A DNA stretch of 64,000 nucleotides, taken from contig JAWSVK010000018.1 of NCBI GenBank assembly GCA_033851955.1, positions 1 through 64,000 of the forward strand, in the 5' to 3' direction. How positions within the stretch are numbered: position 1 is the stretch's first letter; every line of letters begins with the position of its first letter. The notes beneath the pieces were generated by a model. The model was not told where the DNA came from. It worked only from the letters and a program-made list of their open reading frames with translations, and did no database searches. Origin of the DNA: Marinosulfonomonas sp. GTDB taxonomy: Bacteria; Pseudomonadota; Alphaproteobacteria; Rhodobacterales; Rhodobacteraceae. Position numbers and translations under genes: made by a program. Shown piece by piece: positions 1 to 28,253 of this stretch.

Positions 1-58
1 GAAATCTTGCGACCACCTCTGTAGGCTTGAAAGTCTTCTAGCTTAGGCATGGGTGGGT

Positions 59-2620
59 CTATAGTCTTGGATCAACTGGTTCACTCTCAAGAGCCAGTAC
101 GGCCAACGCGCATTCATGCACCTTTGATAGTGGCAAGCCCTCAACGAACCGATGCAACCCCTCAAAGCCCAGTTTGAACTCACGTTCCGCCAATGAAAAC
201 TTCCTTCCTAAGCCGCGTTGCCGCAGCCGTTCGATATTCTCAGGTAGATCATAGTCAGGACCATAGATGATGCGGAGGTAGTCGCGTCCACGCACCTTCA
301 TCGCAGGTTGGATCATGCCCTTGCTTCCGTGAACCAAGAAATCGGTTGGCTTGAAGACCAGCCCTTCGCCACCTTTGGATGTGTGATCGAGCCACCACTC
401 AACAACCACTTCCCGTTGTGCGGGATCATCGAGATTGATCTGCTTCCAACCGGTTGCCTGAAGGATCGGATCATTGTCAGCCAGTTTCGAGATCGTCTCC
501 ATGTGCCAAGTGTGGGGCTTGCCTGAGTGAACATGGCCTTCACTCGCCAGAATGTGGAATGGTGCAATACGATAGTCATCGATACTATCAGCTTGCCAGC
601 AATACCCATCAATCGTTTTACCCATCAAACGTGCGTTCAACAGCCTGATCTCGGCTTTGGCTTTCAACTCGGACAGATCATCTATTTCGCCTTTACGACT
701 CAATGCATCAATCAACGCGGCGGCGGAATGTTCAGCAGCAGCCACCGTGGGAAAGTACTGACGTTTTAGCAGGTCTTGGGCTTTGGCGGACCAAGGCATT
801 AATTCTGCGTCTAGCAGCACCCAGTCAGTTCCCAATTCATCCCAAAGGCCTGAAGACTGCATAGCTGTCGCCACACGATCAACCACAGCAGCCTCTGATG
901 TTTCATCCTTGAAGAACGGTCGCCCTGTTCTAGTGAAGATGACACCTGCTTTGCCATCTTCGACACCAAAGCGAACCTGAGCGGCCACAGCACTTTTGGC
1001 GACAACCAATAACGCCCGTGATCCCATGTGTTTCTCTTCGACAACAAGATCGGTCACACCACGACCAGCATAGTGATCCATGGCCTGCTCTGGCCGTTCC
1101 AGGAACGGTCCCTCAGATGCCGTTGGACACGCCGCCATGGTCGGTGGCAGGTATATCAACCAACGCGGATCGACCGCGAAGCGACTCATTACCTCAAGAG
1201 CAGCCAGGCTGTTCTCTTCAGGGATTTGGATCGTTGATTTGAACCGAGTCTCGATCCGCATTTTCGTCGCATAGTCATCGAAATACAAAAGCTTGTCGTG
1301 GTCTTGCTGTGCGGTCAGAGACTGACCCGCATCGAGAGGCTTGGCAGGGATTGCGTATTGCTGTTTCGCAGGGACCGACACCGTTTCCCGTTCAGGCCAA
1401 CGTAGCGCAGTCAGCTTGCCGCCAAAGACGCAGCCAGTATCAATACACATCGTTTGGTTCAGCCATTCAACATTAGCCATAGGCGTGTGGCCAAAGACAA
1501 CATCGGCCTTACCACGGTAATCTCTTGCCCATTCAAGGCGCACAGGAAGACCGAACTCATCCACTTCACCTGTCGTCTCTCCGAACATGGCGAAGTTGCG
1601 AACATAGCCAGACCCGCGACCGTGCATCTCTTCCTTCAGCCCAGCATGTGCGATGACCAGTTTTCCATCGGCAAGCCAGGCGTGGGACCGCAAGTCCCAG
1701 ATGAAGTCACTGGCCTGCTTGCGGAATGCATCAGAAGTCTGTTCAAGCTCGGTCACCGTCAGATCAAGACCATGTGTTTGGGTGACGGACCTACCCTTCA
1801 GCCATTTGTTCAGCTTGAAGTCATGGTTGCCGACAACGCATCGACCTGATCCTTCATCACACATCCCCATAACCAGCCGCAGTGCATTGAGGTTTTTGGG
1901 GCCACGGTCCGTGATGTCACCGACGAAGAACGCGATACGTCCCTCAGGGTGCCTTGCACAAATAAGGTCTTCCGACCCATCTTCATACGGATCGATCTGA
2001 TATCCCAAATTGCCCAGCAGTTTGGTCAATTCATCAAAGCACCCGTGGATGTCACCAATGATATCGAACGGGCCGTGATCTTGGCGGTTGTCGGTCCATA
2101 ACGGCTGACGTTCGATCTGAAGTGCGTCCACCTCTTCTGGAGACTTCATGATGTGAACGTTACGAAAGCCTTCCTTCTGCAAGCCACGCAGCCCCCTACG
2201 TAGGGCTTTAGCGTGGTTTCGAATGACATGCTCACCAAAGTCACGGTTTGAACGCTGTTGGTTGCGTTCATGACAAATCTTTGGGTCGATATCCAACACC
2301 AGTGCAACTGGCAAAGCGTGATACTTTCGAGCAAGTTGGATCAGCTTGGCCCGATCTTCGCGTTTCACCGATGTTGCATCGATGACAGTCAGCAACCGCC
2401 GTTTCAGACGGATGGAGGCGGTGTAGCTCAACAAGTCAAACGCATCGCCCGTGGCGGCCAGATCGGTTTCATTGTCGGACACCAAAGCACGGCAATGGTC
2501 CGAGGAAACGATCTCGGTTTCAAGGAAATGTTTACTGGCAAAGCTCGACTTACCTGAGCCAGTTGAGCCGATCAGAACAACAAGGGCGAAGTCGGGAATG
2601 GTTATCTGTAGATCGGTCAT
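59..2620 (-). CDS. pnkp: Polynucleotide kinase-phosphatase Pnkp (5'-kinase / 2',3'-phosphatase / adenylyltransferase-ligase; RNA repair)
   Basis: N-terminal P-loop kinase motif (GSTGSGKSS). Central calcineurin-like metallophosphatase motifs (GDIHGC, GDITDRG, GNHD). C-terminal ligase-like nucleotidyltransferase domain. Likely start at the internal Met (MTDLQ), whose ATG overlaps the upstream gene's TGA (ATGA). Confidence 0.85.
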   Translation of the reverse strand: MTDLQITIPDFALVVLIGSTGSGKSSFASKHFLETEIVSSDHCRALVSDNETDLAATGDAFDLLSYTASIRLKRRLLTVIDATSVKREDRAKLIQLARKYHALPVALVLDIDPKICHERNQQRSNRDFGEHVIRNHAKALRRGLRGLQKEGFRNVHIMKSPEEVDALQIERQPLWTDNRQDHGPFDIIGDIHGCFDELTKLLGNLGYQIDPYEDGSEDLICARHPEGRIAFFVGDITDRGPKNLNALRLVMGMCDEGSGRCVVGNHDFKLNKWLKGRSVTQTHGLDLTVTELEQTSDAFRKQASDFIWDLRSHAWLADGKLVIAHAGLKEEMHGRGSGYVRNFAMFGETTGEVDEFGLPVRLEWARDYRGKADVVFGHTPMANVEWLNQTMCIDTGCVFGGKLTALRWPERETVSVPAKQQYAIPAKPLDAGQSLTAQQDHDKLLYFDDYATKMRIETRFKSTIQIPEENSLAALEVMSRFAVDPRWLIYLPPTMAACPTASEGPFLERPEQAMDHYAGRGVTDLVVEEKHMGSRALLVVAKSAVAAQVRFGVEDGKAGVIFTRTGRPFFKDETSEAAVVDRVATAMQSSGLWDELGTDWVLLDAELMPWSAKAQDLLKRQYFPTVAAAEHSAAALIDALSRKGEIDDLSELKAKAEIRLLNARLMGKTIDGYCWQADSIDDYRIAPFHILASEGHVHSGKPHTWHMETISKLADNDPILQATGWKQINLDDPAQREVVVEWWLDHTSKGGEGLVFKPTDFLVHGSKGMIQPAMKVRGRDYLRIIYGPDYDLPENIERLRQRGLGRKFSLAEREFKLGFEGLHRFVEGLPLSKVHECALAVLALESEPVDPRL

Positions 2621-3201
2621 GACTTCCATTTTCTCAATTCTGATGCCGCCGCTGTCAGCAGGGATTTTGGGCCAAGTTCTTCCGCCGAGTAGTCGTATGC
2701 AATCGCCTCAAAGACAGAGTCATGAAAGGCAATCGCGAAATGGCGATACCCGTCGAACAAGCTGTCAGAGTGGCGCTGATGAATACGATTTGCGTGACAG
2801 AAATCGCGGATAGCATGAGACTCGATAACTTCTTTGGCGGTGTAAGGGTACAACCCCAACCGACTGAGTGGGTGAGCACCAATCGCTTCTTCGTTCGGTG
2901 GCCCGAGTCGATGCCAAAGAACATGATTGAAACGTATGACAGCCGTAGGTTCTCCCTCACTGCTGACTTCCACCATCCTGACAGACGTACCATCCCAATC
3001 AGGGTCATGTGTTCGCAAGTAGTAAAAGAGGCTCACGCTGTGTTCGTCGGCCAACACAAATGGCATTGGAGCACCACCTGCCATCGATGGTACGCCAGTC
3101 ATGTCTATGAGTGCTTCTATTGACGAATGTTCTTCGTCAGCACCCGAGTTGGGGGCATGATCTAACCGTTGCTGGCCAAATAGAGTTTTCCAAAGAGACA
3201 A
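2617..3201 (-). CDS. Hypothetical protein embedded in the Pnkp/Hen1 cassette (194 aa; probably a TTG start with an AAGGGGG RBS 8 nt upstream)
   Basis: ORF abuts the NTase stop codon and overlaps the pnkp start (ATGA). No recognisable motif. Operon context only. Confidence 0.5.
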   Translation of the reverse strand: MSLWKTLFGQQRLDHAPNSGADEEHSSIEALIDMTGVPSMAGGAPMPFVLADEHSVSLFYYLRTHDPDWDGTSVRMVEVSSEGEPTAVIRFNHVLWHRLGPPNEEAIGAHPLSRLGLYPYTAKEVIESHAIRDFCHANRIHQRHSDSLFDGYRHFAIAFHDSVFEAIAYDYSAEELGPKSLLTAAASELRKWKS

Positions 3202-4008
3202 TTATAATGCCCCCTTAACTATCTGCCGCAACAAGTTGTCGCCTTCAGCCATCAAGTCAGGTCGTTCTTCCTTCTTTGCCACAACAGTTGCCCATGCCAT
3301 CTGATCTTGGATGAAGGTGTCGATCATCGCGATACGCTCACCACGACCAATCTCCTTGGCTTTGCTTTTCAGTACCAACAACTCATCGATATGGATGATG
3401 AGATCGGGTGGTAAGTTTTGGCCTGCGACCAGATCGTGCAAGTTCATTGGCGGCGGTGTACCAGGTATCTGCCTGATCCATGAGATCGCCAAAGCGGGTC
3501 TCAGGATATAGAAATACTTCTTGAAGCTGACCTCTTGGCTATCACCAACGTGCTTATCCCACTGCTTTTGGGCAAGGTTCCGATAGTGGTGCAGGCACGA
3601 TTCACCATAGGTCGTCTTGGCCGCAAACTCGGTGAGTTGAGCGCACAGGTCATCGTTCCACCTGTAGCGAATAGGGCTGGACAGCCATTCCAACATGACG
3701 GGATTAGGCTTGATCAGCAGACCAAGGGCTTTGCGAATATCCCAGCCGTTGATATCCCAGTCTCCTTCAATAGGCAGTTCGATGACATCGCGACCTGGCT
3801 CAATGCTCATGTACCAATCTGGTTGATGCGCATAGATGAAACGCACATCGTAATCGCTGTCAGGCGACGGAAAGCCCCATGCACGGCTACCGCTTTCAAT
3901 GGCAAACAGTACCCTTACACCGTGTTCTACCTCCAAGGCAGTCAGCTTGGATTGGATCACATATTCGATCTCTGGTGAGATGCTGGGTACGAAGGATGGC
4001 AGTTTCAT
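3202..4008 (-). CDS. Pol-beta superfamily nucleotidyltransferase (RNA-repair-associated NTase)
   Basis: hG[GS] and DxD signature in ESGSRAWGF...DSDYDVRF near the N-terminus. The start ATG overlaps the hen1 stop (ATGA). Confidence 0.7.
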   Translation of the reverse strand: MKLPSFVPSISPEIEYVIQSKLTALEVEHGVRVLFAIESGSRAWGFPSPDSDYDVRFIYAHQPDWYMSIEPGRDVIELPIEGDWDINGWDIRKALGLLIKPNPVMLEWLSSPIRYRWNDDLCAQLTEFAAKTTYGESCLHHYRNLAQKQWDKHVGDSQEVSFKKYFYILRPALAISWIRQIPGTPPPMNLHDLVAGQNLPPDLIIHIDELLVLKSKAKEIGRGERIAMIDTFIQDQMAWATVVAKKEERPDLMAEGDNLLRQIVKGAL

Positions 4009-5414
4009 GATGCATCTCCCAAAGTGAAGATGGCCATTTGGGATGGTCCGCCATGGATTTCATCAACAGGACCAAGAGCGGCAAATTCCGCAGTATACCC
4101 GTGTTCATCAGCGACGTGTGTTGCCCACTCTTCAAACTCGGCCCGCGTCCACTCAAAGCGATGGTCAGGGTGACGCAGTTGGTTTTCCTTCATCGTCTCA
4201 AACAAAACGTTGTATTCACGGTTCGGCGTCGTAATCACGACCATATTCGGACGGGCGTCGGCAAAGAGTGACATTACCAAGGCTGACAGCCTGTGTGGCT
4301 CGATGTGTTCGATGACCTCGACAAGCGTTGCCGCATCGAAGCCCTTCCACCGACGATCACCATAGGTGAGGCTGCCCATTTGCAACGTCACACGTTCAGA
4401 CATGGCATCAACCGCCTGATGAAGACGCAATTTACGGTGAGCGGTTTCCAAGGTGCGCACAGATGGATCAACGCCGACGATCCGATCAATACCGCGTTCT
4501 TTGGTCAGCCGAGAGATCAGCTTCCCTTCGCCGCAGCCAAGGTCGAGAACAGATTTCACATTCTTCTGCCGCAGGGCATCAGCAACGGCATCCAAACGGA
4601 TGTCATGTAGCCGTAGGGGCTTTTCCAGTTGTTCTTCCGGCTTCAGTTTCGGGATCTCTTCGTCGTCATCTACGACTGCGGAATCCTCCAGCCGAGCCAA
4701 AGCCATGTTCGTCAACGACCGCCGATGCTTCAATGCACGACGGGTGATCAACTCCTTAGCTGGGTGGTTCGCCAGCCAGCCCTCACCCTTGGCAAGCAGT
4801 TTGTCTATTTCTTCTTGTGCAACGAAGTAGTGCTTGAAGTTGTCCATCACAGGAATCAGCACGTATAAATGGTTCAGAATATCGCCCAACCGCAACTTCG
4901 CGGACAGGCGCAGATCAATCACTGCAAGATCATCAACGTCGTCAGTTGAATGGATCACGTACCCCAGTGGTTCGAACAGCGACTTCAGCAGTTCTAGATC
5001 GCCTGACAATGCAACGGGAAGGACGCGGATTTCAAAGTCTAAAAGTTGATCAGCCAATTCCTGACGATCCTTGGACTTGCCTGCCATCGTCTGAGAAAAT
5101 GACCGAACAAGCGCCACCGACAGGAAAGAGTTTGCCACAAAGGGGCGATCATTCACGTACTGAGCCAGAAGCCCGTCGGACTGCTGGTTCTTGCCGCGAA
5201 CCAACCCAATTGGATCGACTTCGAGATGCAATACCGCAGTCGTGCATTCGTCTGAAACCTCAGGGTAGAATATCGTCACATCACCCGCAGATGTCTTCTT
5301 GGTATGAACATGATCTGGATGTTTATGCAGTAGAAAGCCGAGATCACGGGCGGAATAGTCCACGCCATTTTTTGCCAACAATGTAATCTCGATTTGCATA
5401 ATACTCGGCCTCAA
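4005..5414 (-). CDS. hen1: Hen1 RNA 3'-terminal ribose 2'-O-methyltransferase (bacterial Hen1)
   Basis: C-terminal Rossmann SAM-binding motif VLDLGCGEGKL. N-terminal domain typical of bacterial Hen1. First gene of the cassette. Confidence 0.85.
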   Translation of the reverse strand: MRPSIMQIEITLLAKNGVDYSARDLGFLLHKHPDHVHTKKTSAGDVTIFYPEVSDECTTAVLHLEVDPIGLVRGKNQQSDGLLAQYVNDRPFVANSFLSVALVRSFSQTMAGKSKDRQELADQLLDFEIRVLPVALSGDLELLKSLFEPLGYVIHSTDDVDDLAVIDLRLSAKLRLGDILNHLYVLIPVMDNFKHYFVAQEEIDKLLAKGEGWLANHPAKELITRRALKHRRSLTNMALARLEDSAVVDDDEEIPKLKPEEQLEKPLRLHDIRLDAVADALRQKNVKSVLDLGCGEGKLISRLTKERGIDRIVGVDPSVRTLETAHRKLRLHQAVDAMSERVTLQMGSLTYGDRRWKGFDAATLVEVIEHIEPHRLSALVMSLFADARPNMVVITTPNREYNVLFETMKENQLRHPDHRFEWTRAEFEEWATHVADEHGYTAEFAALGPVDEIHGGPSQMAIFTLGDAS

Positions 5415-5592
5415 GGAATCTCGTTGGTTGCAGGACTATCAACGATAGGTGGTGCCAACAACATGGTATTGAAATGGTGTTTATATGAATGGTCTGTATT
5501 CACGCGACCTGTGTGATAGAAAATCATGATCTGGCGGTCAAACTTGAATATGAATTAGGACAAGCAGCATCAATCAAAGATTGATGGCAAAA

Positions 5593-5619
5593 GTTCGAAT
5601 TCCGATTGAGTATTCGAAC
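5593..5619. promoter_or_regulatory. Inverted repeat GTTCGAAT-N11-ATTCGAAC in the leader of the hen1 cassette
   Basis: Perfect 8-bp inverted arms read directly from the sequence, about 180 nt upstream of the hen1 start codon in a 540-bp AT-rich intergenic region. Confidence 0.3.
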
Positions 5620-5954
5620 CCAATGTGATGACGTTTGCTACAATAATATGCTACGATACCCCATATAATCATATCATAAACATCTGTTAATAATAGGGAA
5701 ATACGAGCTTTCGCAACTTCCCTTCGGCTCCGCCACTACACTGTTTCGCCAAGGTGTCTGATTTGCTCTAGGCAGAATGCTGGGAAACCGAGCTATATGT
5801 GGATTGATTGCCTCAATCATATGAACTAAATTCAAAATTGGATGCGCACAAAAAACCCCCGCTTGGCAAGACGGGCAAAAGGTCTGCATGCAGCTATGTG
5901 CCTATGCTCCATGTCAGAATGGCTGCAACTAGGTGGAATTGAGGGAGACATTTG

Positions 5955-7559
5955 ATGCTAGACGTCGGTGAATTTGACTACGTAATTGTCGGGGCCGGGT
6001 CTGCAGGATGTGTGCTTGCCAATCGCCTGAGCGAAGACCCCAAAAACCAAGTTTTGCTCCTAGAAGCTGGCGGCAACGACAATTACCACTGGATCCATAT
6101 TCCAGTCGGATATCTATATTGCATCGGCAACCCACGGACCGACTGGAGGTTTTCAACGGCTCCCATCGAAGGTTTGAACGGGCGAACGCTTTTGTACCCT
6201 CGAGGCCGTGTCCTTGGCGGATGTTCCTCCATAAACGGCATGCTTTACTTGCGGGGGCAGGCCGCGGATTATGACGGCTGGCAGCAGATGGGAAACACCG
6301 GTTGGGGTTGGGATGATGTGCTGCCATATTTTATGAAATCCGAGGACTATTTTAGTGGCAAAGATGATCACCACGGACAGGATGGTGAGTGGCGCGTTGA
6401 AGAGCAGCGCCTGAACTGGGAAATCCTCGAGGCATGGAAAGTGGCGGCCACCGAGGCTGGCATTCCCGAGACACACGACTTCAATCGTGGGGACAATTTC
6501 GGCGTCGGCTATTTCAAGGTGAACCAACGTTCAGGCTGGCGGTGGAGCACTTCAAAGGCGTTTCTGCGCCCTGCCAAAACACGGGCCAACCTGACTGTCA
6601 TGACCCATGCACAGGCCGAAAAAATATTGATATCCGACAAGCGCGCAACCGGCGTACAGTTCTTGCACAAGGGCAGCAAATCAAAGGTCAGTGCGCGGCG
6701 TGAAGTGATCTTAGCCTCCGGCGCAATTGGCTCACCTCAATTGCTGCAATTATCTGGCATCGGCCCCGGGGGCTTGCTGCAAAAACATGGCATCGACATT
6801 GTGCATGAGGCACCTGATGTTGGCGGCAATCTGCAGGACCACTTGCAAATCCGCTGTGCCTATAAAATTCAGGGCGCAAAAACGCTGAATACGATGGCCT
6901 CGACCCTGTGGGGCAAGGCCAAAATCGGGCTTGAATATGCCCTGAAACGTACCGGCCCGATGTCCATGGCCCCCAGTCAACTTGGGGCTTTTGCCTATTC
7001 GGATGACCGCATGGAAACCCCCGATTTGGAATACCACGTGCAACCCGTGACGCTCGAGGCATTTGGGCAAGATCCGCACAGCTTCCCAGCGATCACCGCC
7101 AGTGTCTGCCACTTGCGCCCCGAAAGCCGTGGCCATGTTCATATCACCTCACCTGACGCACAGGCACATCCTGAAATTCAGCCGAACTACCTGTCGACCG
7201 ACGGTGACCGCGCTGTGGCCGCCAGCGCAATCCGGCAAACCCGTAAGATCATGGATCAACCCGCCTTGGCGCCGTATATGCCCGAAGAATTCAAACCGGG
7301 GCCGCAACATCAATCAGAGGAAGAGCTGATAGACGGCGCTCGCCAAATCGCCTCAACGATTTTTCATCCGGTTGGTACGGCCCGCATGGGCACGGATGCG
7401 CAGGCTGTCGTTGATCCCCAATTGCGGGTCAATGGCATCAACAATCTGCGTGTCGTGGACGCATCAATCATGCCGAATATCACCTCGGGCAACACGAATT
7501 CCCCGACCATCATGATCGCTGAGCGCGCCAGCGACTTAATCCTGAAATCAGCGACTTAG
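5955..7559 (+). CDS. GMC family oxidoreductase (choline-dehydrogenase-like flavoprotein)
   Basis: N-terminal FAD-binding fold [24 protein letters not shown] signature regions. ATG at 5955 with a GAGGGAG RBS. The track's 5952 start is a TTG one codon earlier. Confidence 0.85.
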
Positions 7560-7686: not shown

Positions 7687-9231
7687 CTAAACGGCACGCA
7701 AAGGTACAACATTACCGTTTGGCGAGGACCCAAACTCAGGGAGCGTCCCATCATGGATGGTGCTGAGCGCAAGCGCCCGTAACGCATCACGCTTCATCTC
7801 CATGATCCGGTAATAGGTTTCTTGCGAGCGGATCGGATATATCGCGTAATGCGTGGCGTCCCCACTGGCCACGCGCATCTGCTCAGCCCAAGGTTCAAAC
7901 TCGCGACGGCGTGCGACAAGTGGCTCGAATTGGAAGGCCGGATCGACCGAAAGATCAAACAACGCTGTAAGGTATTCAGCTTGGCGCGTCCGCTCGTGAT
8001 TGCCACCCAATGGAACAAAGACAAAGGCCTGACATACGTTGTCACCACCCTGCCCCTCGTCCTCATGCCCGGGCAACACCGGAAAATCCCAAACGAAATT
8101 GCGCAGAACCCAGGCCGTGCGATGGATCTGTTGCTGCTCTTTGCCCGTCATCATCACGGCGCGCCCGACCCCATGGCCAAAAGCACCGCCCAGACTGACC
8201 AAATCAATTAACAATGTGAAAAGCGCAAAAGGCAGGATGGTTGCGCGGCTGATGCCGACATCACGTCCCTTGTCCTCGTCGATCAGGATCGGAACGACCA
8301 TTGCGAACGCATCAAAAATCTTGACCTCGCGCCGCAACGGAGGCTGCATCGGCAAATCGACAACATCATGCGCGGCGGTCGCAATTTCGGCGAACAACGC
8401 TGCCAGTTCGGGGTCGGAGCAACCTCGCTGTTGGTTTTCAAAAAAGAAACCCGCGCCGCCATAACCGCGGGCCAAGGCATCCGCCTCTTGGGCGATAAGC
8501 AACCGATCGGGATTGGTCCGCAGCGCCCGCGCATCTGAAAACAACGTATTAACGACGCTCTGATCCTTGGCGGAAATCAACGCTCGCGCTGTCTTTTCTG
8601 CCGCCGTGCTCAGCACAGCTGCCCGACGCGCGATGCTGTTGGCAGCTTTCGCGCCCTCAGCCCGCATACGGGTCAACGGCCCAATTCCGCGTGCAGATAC
8701 CCCACAAGTGCCCCCCACTGCGGCTTCCCGAGTTGAGCGCTTTGCCGCAAGACGGTCAGCACGTGCCGCCGTCAACGCGACACCCGCCATGCCATCGGCT
8801 AACCCGTTGACCGGCTCTATTGTGGCGGAAAAAGCCGCATGGTTCATCAAGGCCTGAACCCCGTCGCGGTTGTTAAGATACAGCAGTGCAGTCGTTGCCG
8901 TTAGCACCGAAAGCGACGACATGACCAAGCCTCCAGCAATATAATGCCAGACACGCGGCGCAGGCAAAGCGGCCTGCGCACGCCGTAAATGTTTTTCACG
9001 GCTGCTGCGTCCTGCTTGCAACCAAAAACGGAATGCAAGAAGGGTCAAAAACAGTGTCGACACCGCAGACACAGCGATGCGGGATGACTCATTTAGGGAT
9101 GATCCCGTCAGCGAAAAGTAAATTCCACTGCCGCTCAAAACGGTCGAAAGGACCAAAGCGATCCCCCCGACCAGACCGGCGATTGAGACGCCGTTCGACA
9201 ACAATTTTGATATGGTTTGGGAGCGTTTCAT
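7687..9231 (-). CDS. Hypothetical membrane protein (514 aa; N-terminal TM helices, Ala-rich central region)
   Basis: Long ORF with hydrophobic N-terminal segments. No recognisable catalytic motif. Its start overlaps the upstream small gene's stop (ATGA), so the two form an operon. Confidence 0.5.
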   Translation of the reverse strand: MKRSQTISKLLSNGVSIAGLVGGIALVLSTVLSGSGIYFSLTGSSLNESSRIAVSAVSTLFLTLLAFRFWLQAGRSSREKHLRRAQAALPAPRVWHYIAGGLVMSSLSVLTATTALLYLNNRDGVQALMNHAAFSATIEPVNGLADGMAGVALTAARADRLAAKRSTREAAVGGTCGVSARGIGPLTRMRAEGAKAANSIARRAAVLSTAAEKTARALISAKDQSVVNTLFSDARALRTNPDRLLIAQEADALARGYGGAGFFFENQQRGCSDPELAALFAEIATAAHDVVDLPMQPPLRREVKIFDAFAMVVPILIDEDKGRDVGISRATILPFALFTLLIDLVSLGGAFGHGVGRAVMMTGKEQQQIHRTAWVLRNFVWDFPVLPGHEDEGQGGDNVCQAFVFVPLGGNHERTRQAEYLTALFDLSVDPAFQFEPLVARRREFEPWAEQMRVASGDATHYAIYPIRSQETYYRIMEMKRDALRALALSTIHDGTLPEFGSSPNGNVVPLRAV

Positions 9232-10130: not shown

Positions 10131-11696
10131 TTGGCACGTAGGGTTGGGGCAGAAAAATCCGCAAATAAATCAAACTCCTCACCCTCGGCCAACGACTTGG
10201 CTGATTGGGCGCTCGAAGGCCTGTTGACCAAGTTTGGTCATGAAGCAGATTGGGCGCGTCTGAAAACCCACACGGTAGATGAGCCACCCGCAGCACTCTG
10301 TCACACATGTGCCGAGCTTGTTAAAGCCTGCAAAAGTATAGGCATAGCGATCCGATCCGAAGATCGCCCGAACAACCAGTTCGCGCTTTACAATCTTTAT
10401 TTTTCGCGGGTTCTTCTAAAGGAAATGAAGGCCTTATCGGGCATAGCACGGGATGAGCCGGTGAACGCCGATGGCCCCAGCGCCTTGAATGAAAAGAATG
10501 ACAGCTCACTCAACCGCATAACGTCCGCGATGGCGATTATGTGGTCCACAATGTCAAACCACGCCGCCCACTCCCAACTTGACGCACAAGAAAGCGACGA
10601 GAACATAGCCTCGACCCTGACCAAATATTTCACACGCGAAAATTTCCGCATGACCAAACGCGAAAACTACGGCGCAGCCTTGTTTTTCTTGATAGGGCTC
10701 GCCGCCCGCGCGGAGTATAGTTTTGAAGGCGAAAAGGTATTGGGCGCCTCCCCTGCGATTTTTAGCTTCGTGCTAGAAGCACAAGCCACCCTGTCTGCCG
10801 ATAACGCAACACCTGTACTGATCGATAAGCGCGTGGTCGAGACGCTGGAGCGCGGCCGGATGGCCCAGCTTGCACATACCTTTTTGGGCGGTTTACTCGA
10901 GGTTGGCATAACCGACGTCAAGCGCCTCTGGAAACCGCTCTTTGGGGAAAAATCTAGCGCCCATGCGAGGCTCTCAAACCGCGTGTCTGCCGAACGCCAC
11001 TATGTCTGCTACCGCCTCACATCCTCTGAGCGCGACGTCGAGGTGCTCAAATCTTTCCTCGTCGTACAAGCCCCGGGCTTTGTAGAAGACACCCAAAATC
11101 GGCGCGATCATTTTGCAATGAAAGTGTTTACCAATTATGATTCCGCGCCAATGCGCAGCGTCGGGGCAGTGGTCGAACTTGGTGAGGAAATCGTTGGCTT
11201 TGCCAGTCGACGCAAAGATATTGACGAAGACACATCGATTTTACTGAACCCTGATCAATTCCATGGTGCCACCATGCTGAATTTCAAACAGGTATGGTTT
11301 ACGAAAGGCAACGGCATATTGATGGGCATGTTGATGACCAGCAATCAAAAAAGCCGCAGCATGGCGTGCCCAGTTTTGTGCATTCGCACCGATGCTATAC
11401 ATTCCTCACAAGTCAATTTGGGCGTGATCAATCCTGACCAACTTATTGCGGATATGCTCACCCACACCCGTCTTGCTGTCGCCGCCCCGAGCAGTGACAC
11501 CGCTGATCACAAAAAGCTTGCCAGTTATGTTTGGGACGCGCTGCTGTCCCGCCCCGCTGAAAACGTGGTCTATACCCCGCAAAACGACGACGAAACAGAC
11601 CGCTCGGGCGGCCCACCCATAGTGGCACCGGATATCTCGCCACGCAGCCTGGCAAACAAGTTTCAACGGCTCGGTTTTTCTATGAATGACAACTAA
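10131..11696 (+). CDS. Hypothetical protein (about 521 aa; start uncertain because the track start is TTG)
   Basis: Long ORF with no recognisable motifs, no Walker A and no TM segments. Lower GC than the flanking regions. Confidence 0.45.
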   Translation: MARRVGAEKSANKSNSSPSANDLADWALEGLLTKFGHEADWARLKTHTVDEPPAALCHTCAELVKACKSIGIAIRSEDRPNNQFALYNLYFSRVLLKEMKALSGIARDEPVNADGPSALNEKNDSSLNRITSAMAIMWSTMSNHAAHSQLDAQESDENIASTLTKYFTRENFRMTKRENYGAALFFLIGLAARAEYSFEGEKVLGASPAIFSFVLEAQATLSADNATPVLIDKRVVETLERGRMAQLAHTFLGGLLEVGITDVKRLWKPLFGEKSSAHARLSNRVSAERHYVCYRLTSSERDVEVLKSFLVVQAPGFVEDTQNRRDHFAMKVFTNYDSAPMRSVGAVVELGEEIVGFASRRKDIDEDTSILLNPDQFHGATMLNFKQVWFTKGNGILMGMLMTSNQKSRSMACPVLCIRTDAIHSSQVNLGVINPDQLIADMLTHTRLAVAAPSSDTADHKKLASYVWDALLSRPAENVVYTPQNDDETDRSGGPPIVAPDISPRSLANKFQRLGFSMNDN

Positions 11697-13217: not shown

Positions 13218-16200
13218 ATGCCCCCGATGATCAGCCGTGTCACCAACAAAACCCTGAGTTTCTTTGCATCTGCTGTACTTGCCTGCCTTATCGCACCGAC
13301 AAATGCACACGCGCAGAACCTTTTGGTAGATGGTGGGTTTGATGGTGCGCCGCAAACCCAACACGGTGACCGCTTTGACGAAGATCTTTCGCCTTGGATG
13401 TTTGCCACCGTCTCTCCGACAGCAGTCATTCAGAACACGCAAAACCTTGTGGCAGTCGATGGGCCCGGCGGGTTTGACTATCAGGATCGGGGGCCAGAAT
13501 CTGACGCCTCCAGTGCGCCTGCAGGTGTCACCCAGTACTACATCGATAGCGGCAACATTCCGCTTTATGGATGGCAATACTTCACGCCCAGTTGCCGCGG
13601 GACTGCGACTGCGAGCATGAAAGTGACCAATCGCGAAGGTCACGGCGAAGCGGGGCCAACGCTCACGGGTGCAGAAGTTCCCCCACAAGCTGGTCCATTC
13701 ACATTTCGCAGCACTCAAGGTGGCTTGGCCATTTTACAAGTGCCCAACCAAATTCCGACCTTCCCCATCGGATTTGGCGTTTCCCCTGCGCCGACCGCGC
13801 AACTTGTCACAGCACTCAAAGCCCAATTTGACGCCGAAAAAATGCCGTTTCTTTTGACAGCAGCCACCACGCAAACCTACCCTTGGACGCCGATGACCTT
13901 TCAGGCGCCTGTTGAGGCCGGTCAGCTCTACGCCTTTATGGCCGAGCTTGGACACAGCGTGAACATGGACAACGCCTCGGTTGAGGTCGCCTGCGACACC
14001 CCAGTGGTGCCAGTACCCACAGACATCACCGTGACCAAAACCTGCGACGCCCCTGTGGCTGGCGTCCACAATGGCGTGTCAGGCATGTTCTGGGACTGCG
14101 AGATTGACGCTCAAGGCACCCTGCACACACAGCCCAGCCAAGGCGTTTTACATGTCAACGATCTGGTGACCCCGTCAACTGGAACCACGGCCGAAATTAT
14201 CTCAATGACTTCGCAATCGGGCAACATGAATTGCACCTATAACAACGGTCAATCCTGCCTTGTTGCGGGCAATACTTTTGACGCCACCAATGGCGAAACG
14301 ATCGATGTGCAGCTGTTCCTGTCCGGCGCCGCTGCCCCCGCGCAGCACAATGTCGAAAACTGCGTTAAGGCCATTTATTTCAAAAACGGTCAACCAACCC
14401 AGTTCCCGCAAAGCTGCGTGACAACCCAGTGGGAAATACCCACCCCCTCGCCCTATTTGAACACGGTTAAAACCTGCGATCCAATCGCCCCCGTCAGCAC
14501 GGGTCCGATGACCCTGAATTGCCAAATCCAAGTGACAGGCACAAACCTTGCGCCCGGCAGCTTTGTTCTGGTGGGCGATGCTTTTGCGGGTTTGCCACCA
14601 ATGAACGCCTCAATTATTGGCACGATGATGAACGTCACCTCAAACGAGCCATGGTCCTGTGTTGATCTGAACATCAACACCCCCAGTTCGGTTGGTCTTT
14701 GTGAACTGCCAGCGGCCGATATGGCCGCGGCTGGTGGCAGCTCGGTGATCAACGTCAGTTTTGAATTCACGACCGACCAAAGCGGCGGCCAAGTGGCCAA
14801 CTGCCCGATTTCAGAGGCAACCCCAAACTCGTTCATATCCGCCACCGGTCAGCGCAGCAGTCAGCCACCTATGCGCAGCCCGCAAACCGATTCAGTGCAA
14901 TTGCCCGACGGTTGCGTTCTGTTGGATATACCGCCCGCAATCGTGGAAGAAAAAATCGAGCGCGCCGAAATGACCAAAAGCTGTGATCAACCGCAGCAGG
15001 CTGTCGTCAACGGCGTGCTTGGCTACACATGGGACTGTCAGGCCACAATCACCGTGATCCCGATACCTTTTGCAGGCACATTCACACTGGATGATGACGC
15101 TTCCAACATCTCGATTGGCGTGGCGCAATTCCTGTCCGCCTCAGAACCAAACTGCCAAGGCATTGGCACCGATCAGTTGAGTTGCGCCCTGAATGGCGCG
15201 ACCATGACTGCGCCTCACATCGTGACCTATCAACTGTTCACCGAACTCACCGACCCCAATCAGCCGATTGAGTGGGAAAACTGCATCAAAGGCCGTGCTG
15301 AAACCACCGCAGACGAGCACCCCACCGTGCCAATGTGTGTTGGGCGTGTGATCAAACCGGAAATCAGTGTCGTTGATCCAGAGCCAAAAGAGATCACTTT
15401 GACCAAGAAATGTGGCCGTCCAAGTGATGCGCAACAGAATGGTGTGAATGGCAAACGCTGGTCTTGTGAAGTCACCGTCACCGCCAATCCCGCCCCCTTC
15501 TCAGGGACGTTTAGTTTCCTTGAAGACGCCAGCAATGTGTCCGGCACGACCAGCGCCAATATCATCGGCTATCAGTCCACCAACGCAGGCTGGACCTGCG
15601 GCGGCACCTTCCCCCAGCCGCAAACCCAGTGCGGCATTTTAGGCAATGTGTTTTCCCAATCCGGTGTCGAAACGATCAGCTTTGATCTGTTTGCCGCCAA
15701 TCAGGGCAACTCTGTGAAATGGGAAAACTGCGTGTCCGGCACCTACACGAATGCTTTCGGTGAAAAGCGCGACGTCAAAGGCAATTGTGTTGGTACCGAT
15801 TGGGAAAACACCAAAGAGCCACCTGTCATTCCGCTGAAAAAAGGCTGTCGTGCCACGGGGACTGAAAACGGTAATTCCTATTACCTGTGCTCCATCTACG
15901 TAAGCCCGCCCAGCAGTGGCACCGTCACCGGCCCGCTGACGGTGGACGAATTGTTCACCACGGCCTCAGGCGCCTCTGCGACGCAATATATCCAAGCCCT
16001 GATCGGCACACCCTCCGCGCCAAATGGCTGGGCCTGTCAGCAACCAAACTTCCCCAACGGGGCAAGCTGCACAATTTCCGCGGCTGATTTTAACGGCAAT
16101 ACAGGTCACCGGATTGATGCCCAGATCATGATCCCGACCGCTGTGTTGCAGAAAGAAGGGTTTGAAAACTGTGCCCAAGTGCGCATAGGTGATCAGATTG

Positions 16201-18965
16201 TCGGATCGGCCGACTGTGTCGACATCATTGTTGAAACCGAAAAGGTCGAATTTGACGTCGAAAAATCCTGCAAACCATCGGGGGATCGCCAAATTTTGGG
16301 TGCGACCGGATGGGTTCAGGCCTATCAATGTACCCTGACCGTGACCACCAACGGAGTGCCGTTCACGGACCCGCTTTGGATCACTGAAGATCTGCATTTC
16401 GGAACCAACTCTGGCGCGGGCCAAATCCAAAACATCACCTCTGCTGACCCTTGGTCCTGCTCAAACCCGCCATATTCCGCGCCCGGTCAAGGCAACGTGC
16501 CCTATTGCGGCATCCAAGGTGCTCAATTTCCAGCCTCTGGCACCTCGACACTCACGGTCGACCTGATGATGAATGCGGCGATGGATCAGTTTGGCGCGGA
16601 AAATTGCGTATCGCTTAGCGTCGGGCCACCAACCGCAAATGGCCTTCCTGCCCCGATTGCAAGCGATTGCTTTGAATTTGCACCAGCGCCTGAGCCGACA
16701 CTGGATATCACCAAAACATGCGAGCCCGCAATCCTCGGGGCTGGCAACCTTTGGACGGTCGAATGCACCGTGACCGTCAGCGGCACGAACCTGCCATCCG
16801 GGCATCAAATCATCCTAAAAGATGGGCTGCAAGGCGCGGGCTCTACCGTCATCAATTCGGGCGGTTTCAATCCGTCGCCGTTCTTACCGCAAAGCTGTAC
16901 GGGCTATGCAATTGCCTCTGGTCTTGGATCACAGTGCATACTGACAAGCGATCAAATCACTGCAAACGGCGGGTCAATATCACTGCCCTACACGGGAACG
17001 CTTTCTGGTAACCGCTTGGGTCTAAACAGCCCCCCTGCCGAGAACTGCGCTGCCGCCAGTGTTTCGGCGCTGAACCTGACTGCGCCACAAAACGCGACCG
17101 GCCAGGCCTGCGTTGATATCCCACTGACTGTTACAGCCGTTCCAGGAACAGGTGGCATCAGCATCGATCCTTCGATTCCTATCATCGTCACGCCACCAAC
17201 AGGCTGTGGGTTTGATACGCTGTTTGTGATCGACCAATCCGGATCGATGCAACAACAAAACCGGATGGGATTGACCAAACAAGCCGTCACTGCGGCGCTG
17301 CGTATTTTCGTAGGTGGTGGCTCAAAGTCAGGTGCAATTGTGTTCAATGAATTTGCCTATCCCGCCGGTGGAACATCCGTTCTGCTGCCGTCTTCCACTT
17401 TGGAAACGGCGATCAGCGCGATCACAGCTGGTGGCCCCACCAATTGGGTGGCCGGTATGACCACGGCAAACAACGTCGTGTCTGGTCTGGCGAATAAACC
17501 CTTGGTCCTGTTCATCACGGACGGGTTGCCAAATCGACCCGTCGGCGATCCAACACAGGTTGGGAACACGACTTACTACATCAATCAGGCCGCCCCTGCG
17601 GTGAACGCTTTGCGTGCGCAAGGCAGCCAAGTCGTGGGGATCGCGCTTGGGAATGGTGTTCTATCAAGCAATCTATCCATGCTGCTTGGGCCAAATGTCG
17701 TCACCGCCGGTGGAAATGTTGCGATTGATCCGCAAACAACAGATGTTATTGCCATTCCCACAGGAAATATGATCATTCCCGCGTTTGAAGCGATCGTAAA
17801 CGCATATTGCCCTGGTAGAAAAACCATGACGCAACCACAAAAAGATGCGCTGATGGCAACGTTGCAAGCGATGCCAAAATCCGCAGGCGTCTATATGGGG
17901 GATGATGAATTGCTTGTTGTGCCAGAAGAGGAAGCCGTGGACAAGCCGCCCGTCCTCCCAACAACAGCGCCTGCTCTAACCACCATCAAAGAGCAAACGG
18001 GACCGTGCGTCGCCAACCGCGCCAGCCAGACCTACGACTGTGGTTTCCGTCTAAGTGTCACCAACACCGGAACGGGGCCATACATTGGGCCACTGGTGAT
18101 GACCGACACGGCGGGCAATCCCGGGATCAACTCGGCGAGTGCCGTCTCGGGCAACGGCTGGAGCTGCGGCGCAGCTGTCGGCAATGCGGTGTCCTGTACA
18201 AACCCTGCAGTCAACCTGACACCGGGAGCCTCAACCCATGTTGACCTGCGGATGAAGGTCAAAGGTCTGCGCAAGGGTGGCAGCCTCCAAAACTGTGCCA
18301 CAACAGGCGTCACGGATGATCGCCGTCAGCGGGTGGCTTTGATCCAAAAAATCATGAACGACCGTGGCCTGAAAGCCGGACCAGTTGATGGCGATCCCGG
18401 GCGCAAAACCTTTGCCGCGCTTGCCACATTGCGCGCCGATCTTGGTTTGGCAGAAAGCCGCGAATTTGATGATGCGTTGTTCAACGCCCTTGGACTTCCG
18501 TTGCAAAACGCAGAACAAGCCTCTTGTGTCACGGCTGACCTTGCGCCGATGCCGGCCCCACCGTTGCAGTGCAATCCGAAAACCACTGTGGCACAGGGCG
18601 AAAGCTGTGCGTGCCGCTATGATAACATGAAGCGGCGCAATGCGCGTTCTTGTCAGTGTCGTGCGGGATATGCGCTGGTTGTCGGCAAAGGCTGTGTAGA
18701 AAAAGCAGCCCCCAAACCACAACCCGTTCCAAAGACAGGGCCCAAATGTGATCTGCGATCAACCTACCTACGCGGCGATGTCTGTGCCTGCATTGATCGC
18801 AAAAACGCACGCAACATTTCCAAAACCCGCTGCGGCTGCACAAATGGGCTTCCGATGGTCAATGGCAGATGTATACCGATCAAGGTCCGACCAAAACCCG
18901 AAGGCGATGGACCTGCGGGCACCAAAGACTGTCGGATTAAAATTGGCAATGTTTGTGTAAAATAA
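13218..18965 (+). CDS. Giant secreted multidomain surface protein / adhesin (1915 aa): Sec signal peptide, tandem Ig-like repeats, vWA domain, peptidoglycan-binding domain, C-terminal Cys-rich modules
   Basis: Signal peptide (FFASAVLACLIAPTNAHAQ). Repeated roughly 150-aa modules, each beginning TKTCD/TKSCD/TKKCG. vWA MIDAS motif (LFVIDQSGSMQQ...FITDGLPN). PG_binding_1-like segment (KIMNDRGLKAGPVDGDPGRKTFAAL). Three C-terminal CxC...C repeats. Confidence 0.8.
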   Translation: MPPMISRVTNKTLSFFASAVLACLIAPTNAHAQNLLVDGGFDGAPQTQHGDRFDEDLSPWMFATVSPTAVIQNTQNLVAVDGPGGFDYQDRGPESDASSAPAGVTQYYIDSGNIPLYGWQYFTPSCRGTATASMKVTNREGHGEAGPTLTGAEVPPQAGPFTFRSTQGGLAILQVPNQIPTFPIGFGVSPAPTAQLVTALKAQFDAEKMPFLLTAATTQTYPWTPMTFQAPVEAGQLYAFMAELGHSVNMDNASVEVACDTPVVPVPTDITVTKTCDAPVAGVHNGVSGMFWDCEIDAQGTLHTQPSQGVLHVNDLVTPSTGTTAEIISMTSQSGNMNCTYNNGQSCLVAGNTFDATNGETIDVQLFLSGAAAPAQHNVENCVKAIYFKNGQPTQFPQSCVTTQWEIPTPSPYLNTVKTCDPIAPVSTGPMTLNCQIQVTGTNLAPGSFVLVGDAFAGLPPMNASIIGTMMNVTSNEPWSCVDLNINTPSSVGLCELPAADMAAAGGSSVINVSFEFTTDQSGGQVANCPISEATPNSFISATGQRSSQPPMRSPQTDSVQLPDGCVLLDIPPAIVEEKIERAEMTKSCDQPQQAVVNGVLGYTWDCQATITVIPIPFAGTFTLDDDASNISIGVAQFLSASEPNCQGIGTDQLSCALNGATMTAPHIVTYQLFTELTDPNQPIEWENCIKGRAETTADEHPTVPMCVGRVIKPEISVVDPEPKEITLTKKCGRPSDAQQNGVNGKRWSCEVTVTANPAPFSGTFSFLEDASNVSGTTSANIIGYQSTNAGWTCGGTFPQPQTQCGILGNVFSQSGVETISFDLFAANQGNSVKWENCVSGTYTNAFGEKRDVKGNCVGTDWENTKEPPVIPLKKGCRATGTENGNSYYLCSIYVSPPSSGTVTGPLTVDELFTTASGASATQYIQALIGTPSAPNGWACQQPNFPNGASCTISAADFNGNTGHRIDAQIMIPTAVLQKEGFENCAQVRIGDQIVGSADCVDIIVETEKVEFDVEKSCKPSGDRQILGATGWVQAYQCTLTVTTNGVPFTDPLWITEDLHFGTNSGAGQIQNITSADPWSCSNPPYSAPGQGNVPYCGIQGAQFPASGTSTLTVDLMMNAAMDQFGAENCVSLSVGPPTANGLPAPIASDCFEFAPAPEPTLDITKTCEPAILGAGNLWTVECTVTVSGTNLPSGHQIILKDGLQGAGSTVINSGGFNPSPFLPQSCTGYAIASGLGSQCILTSDQITANGGSISLPYTGTLSGNRLGLNSPPAENCAAASVSALNLTAPQNATGQACVDIPLTVTAVPGTGGISIDPSIPIIVTPPTGCGFDTLFVIDQSGSMQQQNRMGLTKQAVTAALRIFVGGGSKSGAIVFNEFAYPAGGTSVLLPSSTLETAISAITAGGPTNWVAGMTTANNVVSGLANKPLVLFITDGLPNRPVGDPTQVGNTTYYINQAAPAVNALRAQGSQVVGIALGNGVLSSNLSMLLGPNVVTAGGNVAIDPQTTDVIAIPTGNMIIPAFEAIVNAYCPGRKTMTQPQKDALMATLQAMPKSAGVYMGDDELLVVPEEEAVDKPPVLPTTAPALTTIKEQTGPCVANRASQTYDCGFRLSVTNTGTGPYIGPLVMTDTAGNPGINSASAVSGNGWSCGAAVGNAVSCTNPAVNLTPGASTHVDLRMKVKGLRKGGSLQNCATTGVTDDRRQRVALIQKIMNDRGLKAGPVDGDPGRKTFAALATLRADLGLAESREFDDALFNALGLPLQNAEQASCVTADLAPMPAPPLQCNPKTTVAQGESCACRYDNMKRRNARSCQCRAGYALVVGKGCVEKAAPKPQPVPKTGPKCDLRSTYLRGDVCACIDRKNARNISKTRCGCTNGLPMVNGRCIPIKVRPKPEGDGPAGTKDCRIKIGNVCVK
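14020..17100 (+). repeat. Tandem array of about 7-8 Ig-like (DUF11-like) coding repeats inside the adhesin gene, period about 430-500 bp
   Basis: The recurring TKTCD-type module starts near 14029, 14467, 14968, 15397, 16255 and 16705. Each module carries a conserved Cys/Trp pattern (W.C, NC). Confidence 0.5.
17208..17750 (+). other. von Willebrand factor type A domain within the adhesin
   Basis: DxSxS MIDAS motif (DQSGS) and the downstream FITDG motif. Confidence 0.6.
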
Positions 18966-28157: not shown

Positions 28158-28180
28158 TCAGTGTTTCCACCTTACCCAAG

Positions 28181-28253
28181 GTTTGATGGCGGGGTTCGAA
28201 CCCGCTACAGGCAAATTATAATTTTGCTGCTCTACCAGATGAGCTACATCAAC
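28181..28253 (-). tRNA. tRNA with anticodon UAU (Ile-AUA reading type), 73 nt, no encoded CCA, G1:A72 mismatch
   Basis: Manually folded cloverleaf: acceptor GTTGATG/CATCAAA; D-arm GCTC-ATCTGGTA-GAGC (U8, A14, G18G19, A21); anticodon arm GCAAA-AUUAUAA-TTTGC; 5-nt variable loop; T-arm GCGGG-TTCGAAC-CCCGC. Confidence 0.55.

Follow-up and report, generated by a model that had tools for sequence, protein, structure and literature searches.

A Pnkp/Hen1 RNA-repair operon with RlaP and an apparently swappable accessory protein in Marinosulfonomonas sp.

In a 64,000-nucleotide stretch of DNA from Marinosulfonomonas sp. (assembly GCA_033851955.1, contig JAWSVK010000018.1, positions 1 to 64,000; hereafter, the window), four minus-strand genes at positions 59-5414 appear to form a single translationally coupled operon that is centered on Pnkp and Hen1, the textbook case of RNA repair linked to immunity, with a nucleotidyltransferase and a protein of 194 amino acids (aa), denoted X here, encoded between them. 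The nucleotidyltransferase can be identified as RlaP, whose biochemical role has become clear only recently, and X appears to be a lineage-restricted, swappable accessory that is co-translated with Pnkp, not a core catalytic subunit. Hen1, RlaP and Pnkp, as well as their cooperation, have already been described, and the locus adds nothing new on these three. The explanation that we consider, on balance, somewhat probable for the locus as a whole is that of an RlaP-type Pnkp/Hen1 operon that is shuffled as a block and includes X as an accessory, for which the role of an immunity-like binder is preferred.

Organization of the operon

The genes of the operon and the spacer upstream of it are as follows.

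4005..5399, minus strand: hen1, 464 aa from the ATG at 5399; the open frame extends to a TTG at 5414
3202..4008, minus strand: rlaP, the start of which overlaps the hen1 stop via ATGA
2617..3201, minus strand: the gene for X, 194 aa; its TTG start abuts the rlaP stop and its stop overlaps the pnkp ATG
59..2620, minus strand: pnkp, 853 aa from the ATG at 2620; an alternative ATG is at 2629
5400..5951, no strand: spacer upstream of hen1, 552 base pairs (bp), AT-richer, between hen1 and a divergent gene for a GMC oxidoreductase

Calling of open reading frames (ORFs) delineates the four genes at 59-2629, 2617-3201, 3202-4008 and 4005-5414, all on the minus strand. An earlier note on this DNA had described them as joined by ATGA or abutting junctions, and this was confirmed at 4008-4005 (ATGA between hen1 and rlaP), at 3204-3201 (where the rlaP stop TAA at 3204-3202 directly abuts the TTG start of X at 3201) and at 2620-2617 (ATGA between the gene for X and pnkp). 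A GGGGG Shine-Dalgarno sequence lies about 10 nucleotides (nt) upstream of the TTG. Orthologous loci carry taaATG at the position of the rlaP stop and the X start, and the overlap between the gene for X and pnkp in these loci is 1-8 nt; because the coupling geometry of the X gene is thus kept, it is not due to chance. The most likely start of hen1 is the ATG at 5399, which would give 464 aa as in the relatives, and this is also the form called in the near-identical contig L105 and recorded as the cluster representative. For pnkp, the ATG at 2620 is the most likely start, and the 853-aa product is on public record.

The spacer at 5400..5951, where the promoter of the operon presumably lies, shows no conservation among related cassettes; the G+C content (GC) of the 5001-6000 bin that covers it is 0.46. 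Searches of the spacer with the sigma-70 and sigma-54 consensus sequences found no promoter, and an Rfam scan of 5380-5990 gave no match; no Y RNA was found upstream of hen1. Within the spacer, the minus strand of 5858-5875 contains a terminator-like hairpin followed by a T-run (CCCGTCTTGCCAAGCGGG GGTTTTTTGT). There is no minus-strand gene ahead of this hairpin, which could terminate a small RNA or act for the divergent gene.

Pnkp, Hen1 and RlaP

The pnkp gene shares the cassette with hen1, which lies 1.4 kb upstream on the same strand with coupled junctions. Its product matches TIGR04075 over the full length (residues 8-856) with 1245 bits against a cutoff of 750 and contains the AAA_33 (16-145), Metallophos (187-383) and PNKP_ligase (476-851; E-value 3.7e-152) domains. 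All the signature motifs are present, namely, GSTGSGKS (P-loop), GDIHG (DxH), GDITDRG (GDxxDRG), GNHD, GHT and EKHMGSR (the ligase lysine motif), and the protein is predicted to be a trifunctional polynucleotide 5'-kinase, 2',3'-phosphatase and RNA ligase with intact catalytic motifs. Hen1 scores 591.5 bits against TIGR04074 (cutoff 340). It is full-length and has intact catalytic motifs, with an N-terminal Hen1_L domain (PF12623, E-value 1.4e-82), the predicted activator of the Pnkp ligase, and a C-terminal S-adenosylmethionine (SAM) methyltransferase domain that retains the LDLGCGEG, EVIEH (metal-binding ExxEH) and HPDHRFE (distal histidine) motifs. The Pfam and NCBIfam models and the motif check thus uphold what had been claimed earlier of the kinase, phosphatase and ligase domains of Pnkp and of the SAM motif of Hen1.

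The locus resembles the characterized Pnkp/Hen1 system in combining a full-length Pnkp that has kinase, binuclear metallophosphoesterase and ligase modules with a Hen1 that consists of a ligase-activating N-terminal domain and a Mn-dependent 2'-O-methyltransferase, the two being encoded by co-oriented genes of a single cassette with hen1 upstream. It differs in the presence of two more genes between hen1 and pnkp, whereas the common form is a direct overlap of the two. The hen1-first order, previously thought unusual, turned out to be the normal one: hen1 precedes pnkp in all seven annotated plasmid loci that were inspected (from Methylobacterium, Rhodococcus, Nostoc and four Deinococcus, the Nostoc locus being a relative of the characterized Anabaena system), and Hen1 overlaps the 5' end of the Pnkp match in five further records.

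The nucleotidyltransferase, which had been taken for an unexpected extra insertion, belongs to a family known for its presence in RNA-ligase repair operons. It matches PF10127, described in Pfam as "RNA repair pathway DNA polymerase beta family", with 276 bits (cutoff 23; E-value 4.3e-82; model positions 4-248 of 249) and the nucleotidyltransferase family phrog_14344 with an E-value of 3e-75. The GSRAWG (Pol-beta signature), DSDYD and DINGWD motifs are present, with the third catalytic aspartate assigned by motif only, so the protein is a full-length RlaP, covering the nucleotidyltransferase and helical domains of the model, with apparently intact carboxylates. Its gene sits between hen1 and pnkp and is likewise operonic with an RNA ligase in 6 related loci. 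Papers that cite Burroughs & Aravind 2016 credit that study with naming RlaP after its link to the RNA ligase genes of repair operons; the role predicted for it is the restoration of lost nucleotides before ligation (PMC7824862, citing Burroughs & Aravind 2016). Two Pseudomonas proteins, PfRlaP and PaRlaP, add 1-2 nucleoside monophosphates to RNA 3'-OH ends in vitro, reject 3'-phosphate ends, favor the end at the break in a mimic of cleaved tRNA and are required if over-damaged tRNA is to regain aminoacylation (bioRxiv 10.64898/2025.12.29.696909). The same preprint notes that other operons combine RlaP with 5'-phosphate ligases, which can ligate its 3'-OH product directly. The locus described here shares with these repair operons the full-length nucleotidyltransferase family with its carboxylates and the location within an RNA ligase operon, and a 3'-OH product fits the 5'-phosphate ligase of Pnkp. 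In contrast, the characterized PfRlaP and PaRlaP come from rtcB-rlaP-rtcA operons, whereas here a single-copy RlaP is combined with Pnkp/Hen1 and followed by X. Cassettes of the form hen1-RlaP(-RlaP)-pnkp are already annotated on Deinococcus plasmids. Tandem RlaP paralogs are found both in Deinococcus ficus pDFI2 (L107, 1180-7535: Hen1-RlaP-RlaP-237-aa unknown-Pnkp) and in D. gobiensis P2 (L111, 1400-7044: Hen1-NTase-NTase-Pnkp, where NTase stands for nucleotidyltransferase), the latter with nothing further before pnkp.

As established for these families, the 2',3'-cyclic phosphate at a ribotoxin-made break is opened by the phosphatase domain of Pnkp, which gives a 3'-OH; the kinase domain of Pnkp adds a phosphate to the 5'-OH; and Hen1 places a methyl group on the 2'-OH of the nucleotide at the 3' terminus. 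RlaP would act between the phosphatase step and the later methylation and ligation, conceivably to put back nucleotides that toxins such as RloC have removed. The ligase domain of Pnkp seals once it is activated by the N-terminal domain of Hen1 (PMC3675462). Re-addition of nucleotides, as proposed in the earlier note, remains the best reading of the nucleotidyltransferase, but the idea of such a step between healing and sealing is already in print, given the prediction in PMC7824862 and the result of the 2025 preprint (bioRxiv 10.64898/2025.12.29.696909).

Genomic context of X

The gene orders in related loci, which are labeled L001 and so on, are given below.

Sulfitobacter sp. DFL-14 (L001): RtcR, Ro60, YrlA-like RNAs with tRNA, RtcB, Hen1, 227 aa, RlaP, X, Pnkp
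Ruegeria: RtcB, Hen1, RlaP, X, Pnkp
L002: Rnl, HD/kinase, Hen1, RlaP, X, Pnkp
L003: Hen1, RlaP, X, Pnkp
L005 and L038: Hen1, X, Pnkp, without RlaP
L021: RtcB, 135 aa, SIMPL, RlaP, Hen1, X, Pnkp, with RlaP upstream of hen1

The close homologs of X are always encoded immediately 5' of pnkp and coupled to it, with an overlap of 1-8 nt (L001, L002, L003, L005, L021 and L038), and the operons of this subset, some with RlaP and some lacking it, have from seven to at least eight architectures. Because L005 and L038 lack RlaP and L021 has it upstream of hen1, X is tied to pnkp and hen1 and not to RlaP. Comparison of gene neighborhoods for recurrence of a nucleotidyltransferase plus 194-aa pair thus showed that the two do not travel together.

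An indication that X can be exchanged comes from Yoonia sp. BS5-3. Its cassette is 80% (hen1 and rlaP) and 86% (pnkp) identical to that of the window at the nucleotide level, but the X segment is replaced by 334 bp that encode an unrelated 105-aa extension fused to RlaP. The fused RlaP (L114, CP150951.2, 6892-8004) is 370 aa long, and its 105-aa C-terminal module, which includes NRPGMYFG, has no Pfam match; a large serine recombinase is encoded after pnkp in this genome. The slot of X is held by an unrelated 237-aa protein in D. ficus and is empty in D. gobiensis, as it is in most Pnkp/Hen1 loci. Alignment of the X profile with hhalign against the 227-aa protein of L001, the 237-aa protein of D. 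ficus, the 105-aa Yoonia module and the 135-aa protein of L021 indicated that all of these are unrelated to X. Since an unrelated module stands in place of X in a cassette that is otherwise near-identical, X is best regarded as a swappable accessory and not as a core subunit. The four-component repair machine envisaged in the earlier note is, by implication, not obligatory: Yoonia sp. BS5-3 keeps hen1, rlaP and pnkp without X, and other relatives have X without RlaP.

In the wider family, only one of 80 sampled metagenomic loci (37-47% identity) encodes X within a Hen1/Pnkp operon. Most members are stand-alone genes in unrelated settings, often among co-directional small ORFs, and across about 95 loci the only recurrent neighbors of X are Hen1, Pnkp and RlaP. 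Pfam scans of 20 neighbors of stand-alone X homologs yielded one sub-threshold SUKH-1 match, DUF6572 and a BamE-like protein, none of them convincing. A SIMPL-domain gene lies directly upstream of a stand-alone X homolog in Fulvitalea axinellae pFA1 (L115, 4162-5447); a linkage of SIMPL domains to X, considered for this locus and for L021 (4099-4761), was rejected because it does not recur in other loci.

Some of these loci are composite. In Sulfitobacter sp. DFL-14 (QBFD01000022.1, 1438-13134), a very large operon joins the Rtc/Ro60 and Pnkp/Hen1 systems in an apparent single transcription unit, with RtcR divergent, Ro60 of the TROVE/vWA type, and several YrlA-like Y RNAs with an embedded tRNA (best score 65.8 bits, just under the gathering score). 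Compared with the known Rtc/Ro60 operons (rsr-yrlBA-rtcBA under RtcR), this genome appends hen1-rlaP-X-pnkp to RtcR, Ro60, YrlA-like RNAs and RtcB, and Ruegeria has RtcB directly upstream of the same block, whereas in the window the block stands alone, with no adjacent Rtc/Ro60 gene and neither a Y RNA nor a sigma-54 promoter found upstream. In L002 (2160-9539), an Rnl-type ligase (PF09414) and an HD/P-loop kinase protein (Pnkp1-like) are encoded directly upstream of hen1-rlaP-X-pnkp, so that two ligase systems apparently share one Hen1; a resolvase and a DNA methyltransferase follow downstream.

Sequence family and predicted structure of X

As stated in the earlier note, X has no recognizable domain: scans of Pfam, NCBIfam, PADLOC and PHROGs gave no match. 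A single-sequence search retrieved only 13 clusters of homologs (46-99% identity), a profile search 1146 clusters, and an exhaustive hidden Markov model (HMM) search 1716 representatives at 50% identity, all annotated "hypothetical", typically of about 172 aa, and without a Pfam or NCBIfam model. The 160-aa conserved core corresponds to about residues 30-194 of X, and the N-terminal 29 residues are predicted to be disordered. The family is defined by the motifs GAPxP, WDG, GPPN[DE]EAxxGHPL, N-x-x-H-x-x-H and RHxIxxFHDSxFE, and residues N103, D/E104, E105, H110, N138, H141, H154, H160, D161 and E165 are kept across 28-54% identity. The proteins are mildly acidic (median isoelectric point, pI, of 5.7) and lack signal peptides. 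In a neighbor-joining tree, the operon-embedded members comprise a Roseobacter-group clade and two separate deep branches, at a resolution too low for recruitment counts. X is 74% identical to its counterpart in L002, compared with 87-92% for Hen1, RlaP and Pnkp; the ratio of nonsynonymous to synonymous substitution rates (dN/dS) for the same pair is 0.23 for X and 0.03-0.05 for the enzymes, with dS near saturation (and saturated in more distant pairs). X therefore evolves faster than the enzymes, in keeping with an accessory role, and its dN/dS value indicates that it is under purifying selection.

The AlphaFold model of X has an alpha/beta core, a mean confidence (pLDDT) of 87.5 and a predicted template modeling score (pTM) of 0.81. 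The best matches of this fold, an immunity protein and an unknown protein, cover about half of X at 8-9% identity, with Foldseek probabilities of 0.85 and 0.99 but weak E-values. Foldseek found no match among viral structures, a profile search of the PDB sequences revealed no relative of X, only a His-tag artefact, and a search of phage genomes found no homologs. Among 54 diverse family members scanned against Pfam, there was no Imm family, only incidental STAS and alpha/beta-hydrolase fusions.

Possible functions of X

We place an immunity-like binder first among the readings of X, a small metalloenzyme second and an adaptor of the complex third. Under the first, X would be an immunity-type protein-binding module directed at the RNase responsible, or at some other partner in the conflict, which it would neutralize or sequester at the same time as the enzymes mend the RNA. 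This reading is favored because of the fold match, the acidic, cytoplasmic nature of the family, the frequent placement of stand-alone members among co-directional small ORFs and the variable-slot behavior; taken by itself, it is possible but tentative. The matching immunity protein, PIM7 (PDB 8owu_E), protects against the DNase toxin PT7(Bc) of the LXG/type VII secretion system (T7SS) class. X differs from PIM7 and from PDB 5v77 in being about 50-80 residues larger, with strongly conserved His/Asp/Glu motifs, and in having no relation to them at the HMM level; for PIM7, at 8% identity, neither the PDB profile search nor the scan of the 54 family members against the Pfam Imm families showed a sequence or profile relation. 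Moreover, the partner of PIM7 is a DNase, not an RNase, and X has no adjacent toxin. Several further observations weigh against an immunity-like role. The conservation of polar residues in X resembles a metal-binding or active site more than a fast-evolving immunity interface, the fold match is confined to about half of the protein, a recurrent cognate toxin gene is lacking beside X in the approximately 95 loci, and, apart from the sub-threshold SUKH match, the neighbors of stand-alone X genes include no immunity families. The novelty of the proposal is also conditional, in that X is the only new element of the locus unless it is already catalogued in Burroughs & Aravind 2016.

The same conserved residues are what makes a small metal-dependent enzyme worth considering. 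Such an enzyme would add a chemical step, either trimming or proofreading the untemplated nucleotides that RlaP adds or taking off an end modification on which Pnkp cannot act, and the stand-alone relatives would run the same chemistry as housekeeping enzymes. The four nearly invariant histidines together with Asp, Glu and Asn in GPPN[DE]EAxxGHPL, N-x-x-H-x-x-H and RHxIxxFHDSxFE persist across the 1716 clusters and are common to operon-embedded and stand-alone members, and the purifying selection (dN/dS 0.23) and the compact, confident fold prediction fit as well. We nevertheless regard this reading as unlikely: X matches no enzyme fold, its best structural matches being an immunity protein and an unknown protein, and has no sequence relative in the PDB; its acidic pI is unusual for an enzyme acting on RNA ends; and the Yoonia cassette does without it, as do most Pnkp/Hen1 operons. 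Less probable still is a non-catalytic subunit or adaptor of (Pnkp)2(Hen1)2 that orders the steps (RlaP before Hen1), gates the ligase or targets particular broken RNAs. The fixed location just 5' of pnkp, with stop and start codons that overlap in seven architectures and the same coupling as in the simple hen1/pnkp pairs, would be expected of such a subunit, the conserved N-terminal tail of X is specific to the Roseobacter-group operon clade, and an accessory activator of an RNA ligase has a precedent in Archease for RtcB (PMC3973293). But most members of the family stand alone with no Pnkp/Hen1 nearby, the slot is empty or held by unrelated proteins in other cassettes, and the characterized Pnkp/Hen1 works in vitro without a third protein (PMC3675462). 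That the middle two genes are an unrelated selfish insertion, for instance, a toxin-antitoxin or MNT/HEPN-like pair, is largely refuted and very improbable, even though most of the X family lies apart from RNA-repair genes and Pol-beta nucleotidyltransferases do occur in toxin-antitoxin systems. A toxin-antitoxin pair is not supported because RlaP and X do not pair, PADLOC gave no match for either, and RlaP, which is not an MNT protein, is linked by its function to RNA repair. L005 and L038 encode X but no RlaP, Yoonia and Deinococcus have RlaP but no X, and hen1 separates the two in L021. In addition, reading-frame coupling is intact at all junctions, and the Rx4H string of X (R139..H144) is not conserved in the family. 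The earlier note had named as a contrary outcome that the middle genes form a toxin-antitoxin pair occurring without Pnkp/Hen1; no such pair emerged, yet most members of the X family do lack Pnkp/Hen1.

Whichever role applies, X is a well-defined accessory, strictly positioned and coupled to pnkp in several lineages and yet exchanged in near-identical cassettes. A broader proposal, which we hold to be rather doubtful, is that X founds a new family in which the operon clade serves as a dedicated fourth partner of Pnkp/Hen1, either a ribotoxin neutralizer or a histidine-rich metalloenzyme that edits the 3' end after RlaP, with the slot before pnkp exchanging conflict-specific modules. Binding of a ribotoxin or editing of RNA ends by X, if true, would show how repair cassettes are customized against particular toxins and would provide a function for a currently unannotated family of about 1,700 clusters; if it is a ribotoxin neutralizer, one operon would couple "stop the damage" with "repair the damage".

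Mobility of the cassette and its flanks

The evidence supports a compact block that would have been shuffled horizontally among marine Roseobacter-group bacteria. The cassette flanks differ in every related genome, clustering at 90% identity groups Pnkp and RlaP with records from Roseobacter, Yoonia, Cognatiyoonia, Paracoccaceae and Litorimonas, and serine recombinases are found beside the cassette in three loci. The suggestion of a horizontally acquired island is therefore supported with respect to mobility, but the compositional argument for it is weak: in place of the approximately 50% against 60% GC given earlier, the measured values are 52.1% for the cassette and 55.2% for the rest of the window, and the cassette, being the 9th lowest of 118 windows of 5.4 kb, is low in GC but no outlier. 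Neither is the left boundary hidden, as had been thought, because nucleotide homology with the cassettes of four other genomes stops at most 12 nt from the pnkp stop codon (window 57-68) and starts 15 nt or less ahead of the hen1 ATG, so both ends of the conserved block lie inside the window.

At the left edge of the window (1-50, minus strand), an ORF that starts from an ATG at 50-48 (MPKLEDFQAYRGGRKI...), 8 nt past the pnkp stop, runs off the edge; it is probably outside the conserved cassette because neither L002 nor L114 has an equivalent ORF downstream of pnkp. On the other side, two proteins of about 515-520 aa are encoded next to the cassette at 7687-9231 (minus strand) and 10131-11696 (plus strand); their counterparts in the near-identical contig L105 have no Pfam family on record and travel with the cassette there. 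Farther along, the plus strand of 13218-18965 contains a very long ORF of 1915 aa. A tRNA-Ile with the anticodon TAT is encoded on the minus strand at 28180-28253; this tRNA is uncommon in bacteria, where AUA is usually decoded by a lysidine-modified CAT tRNA.

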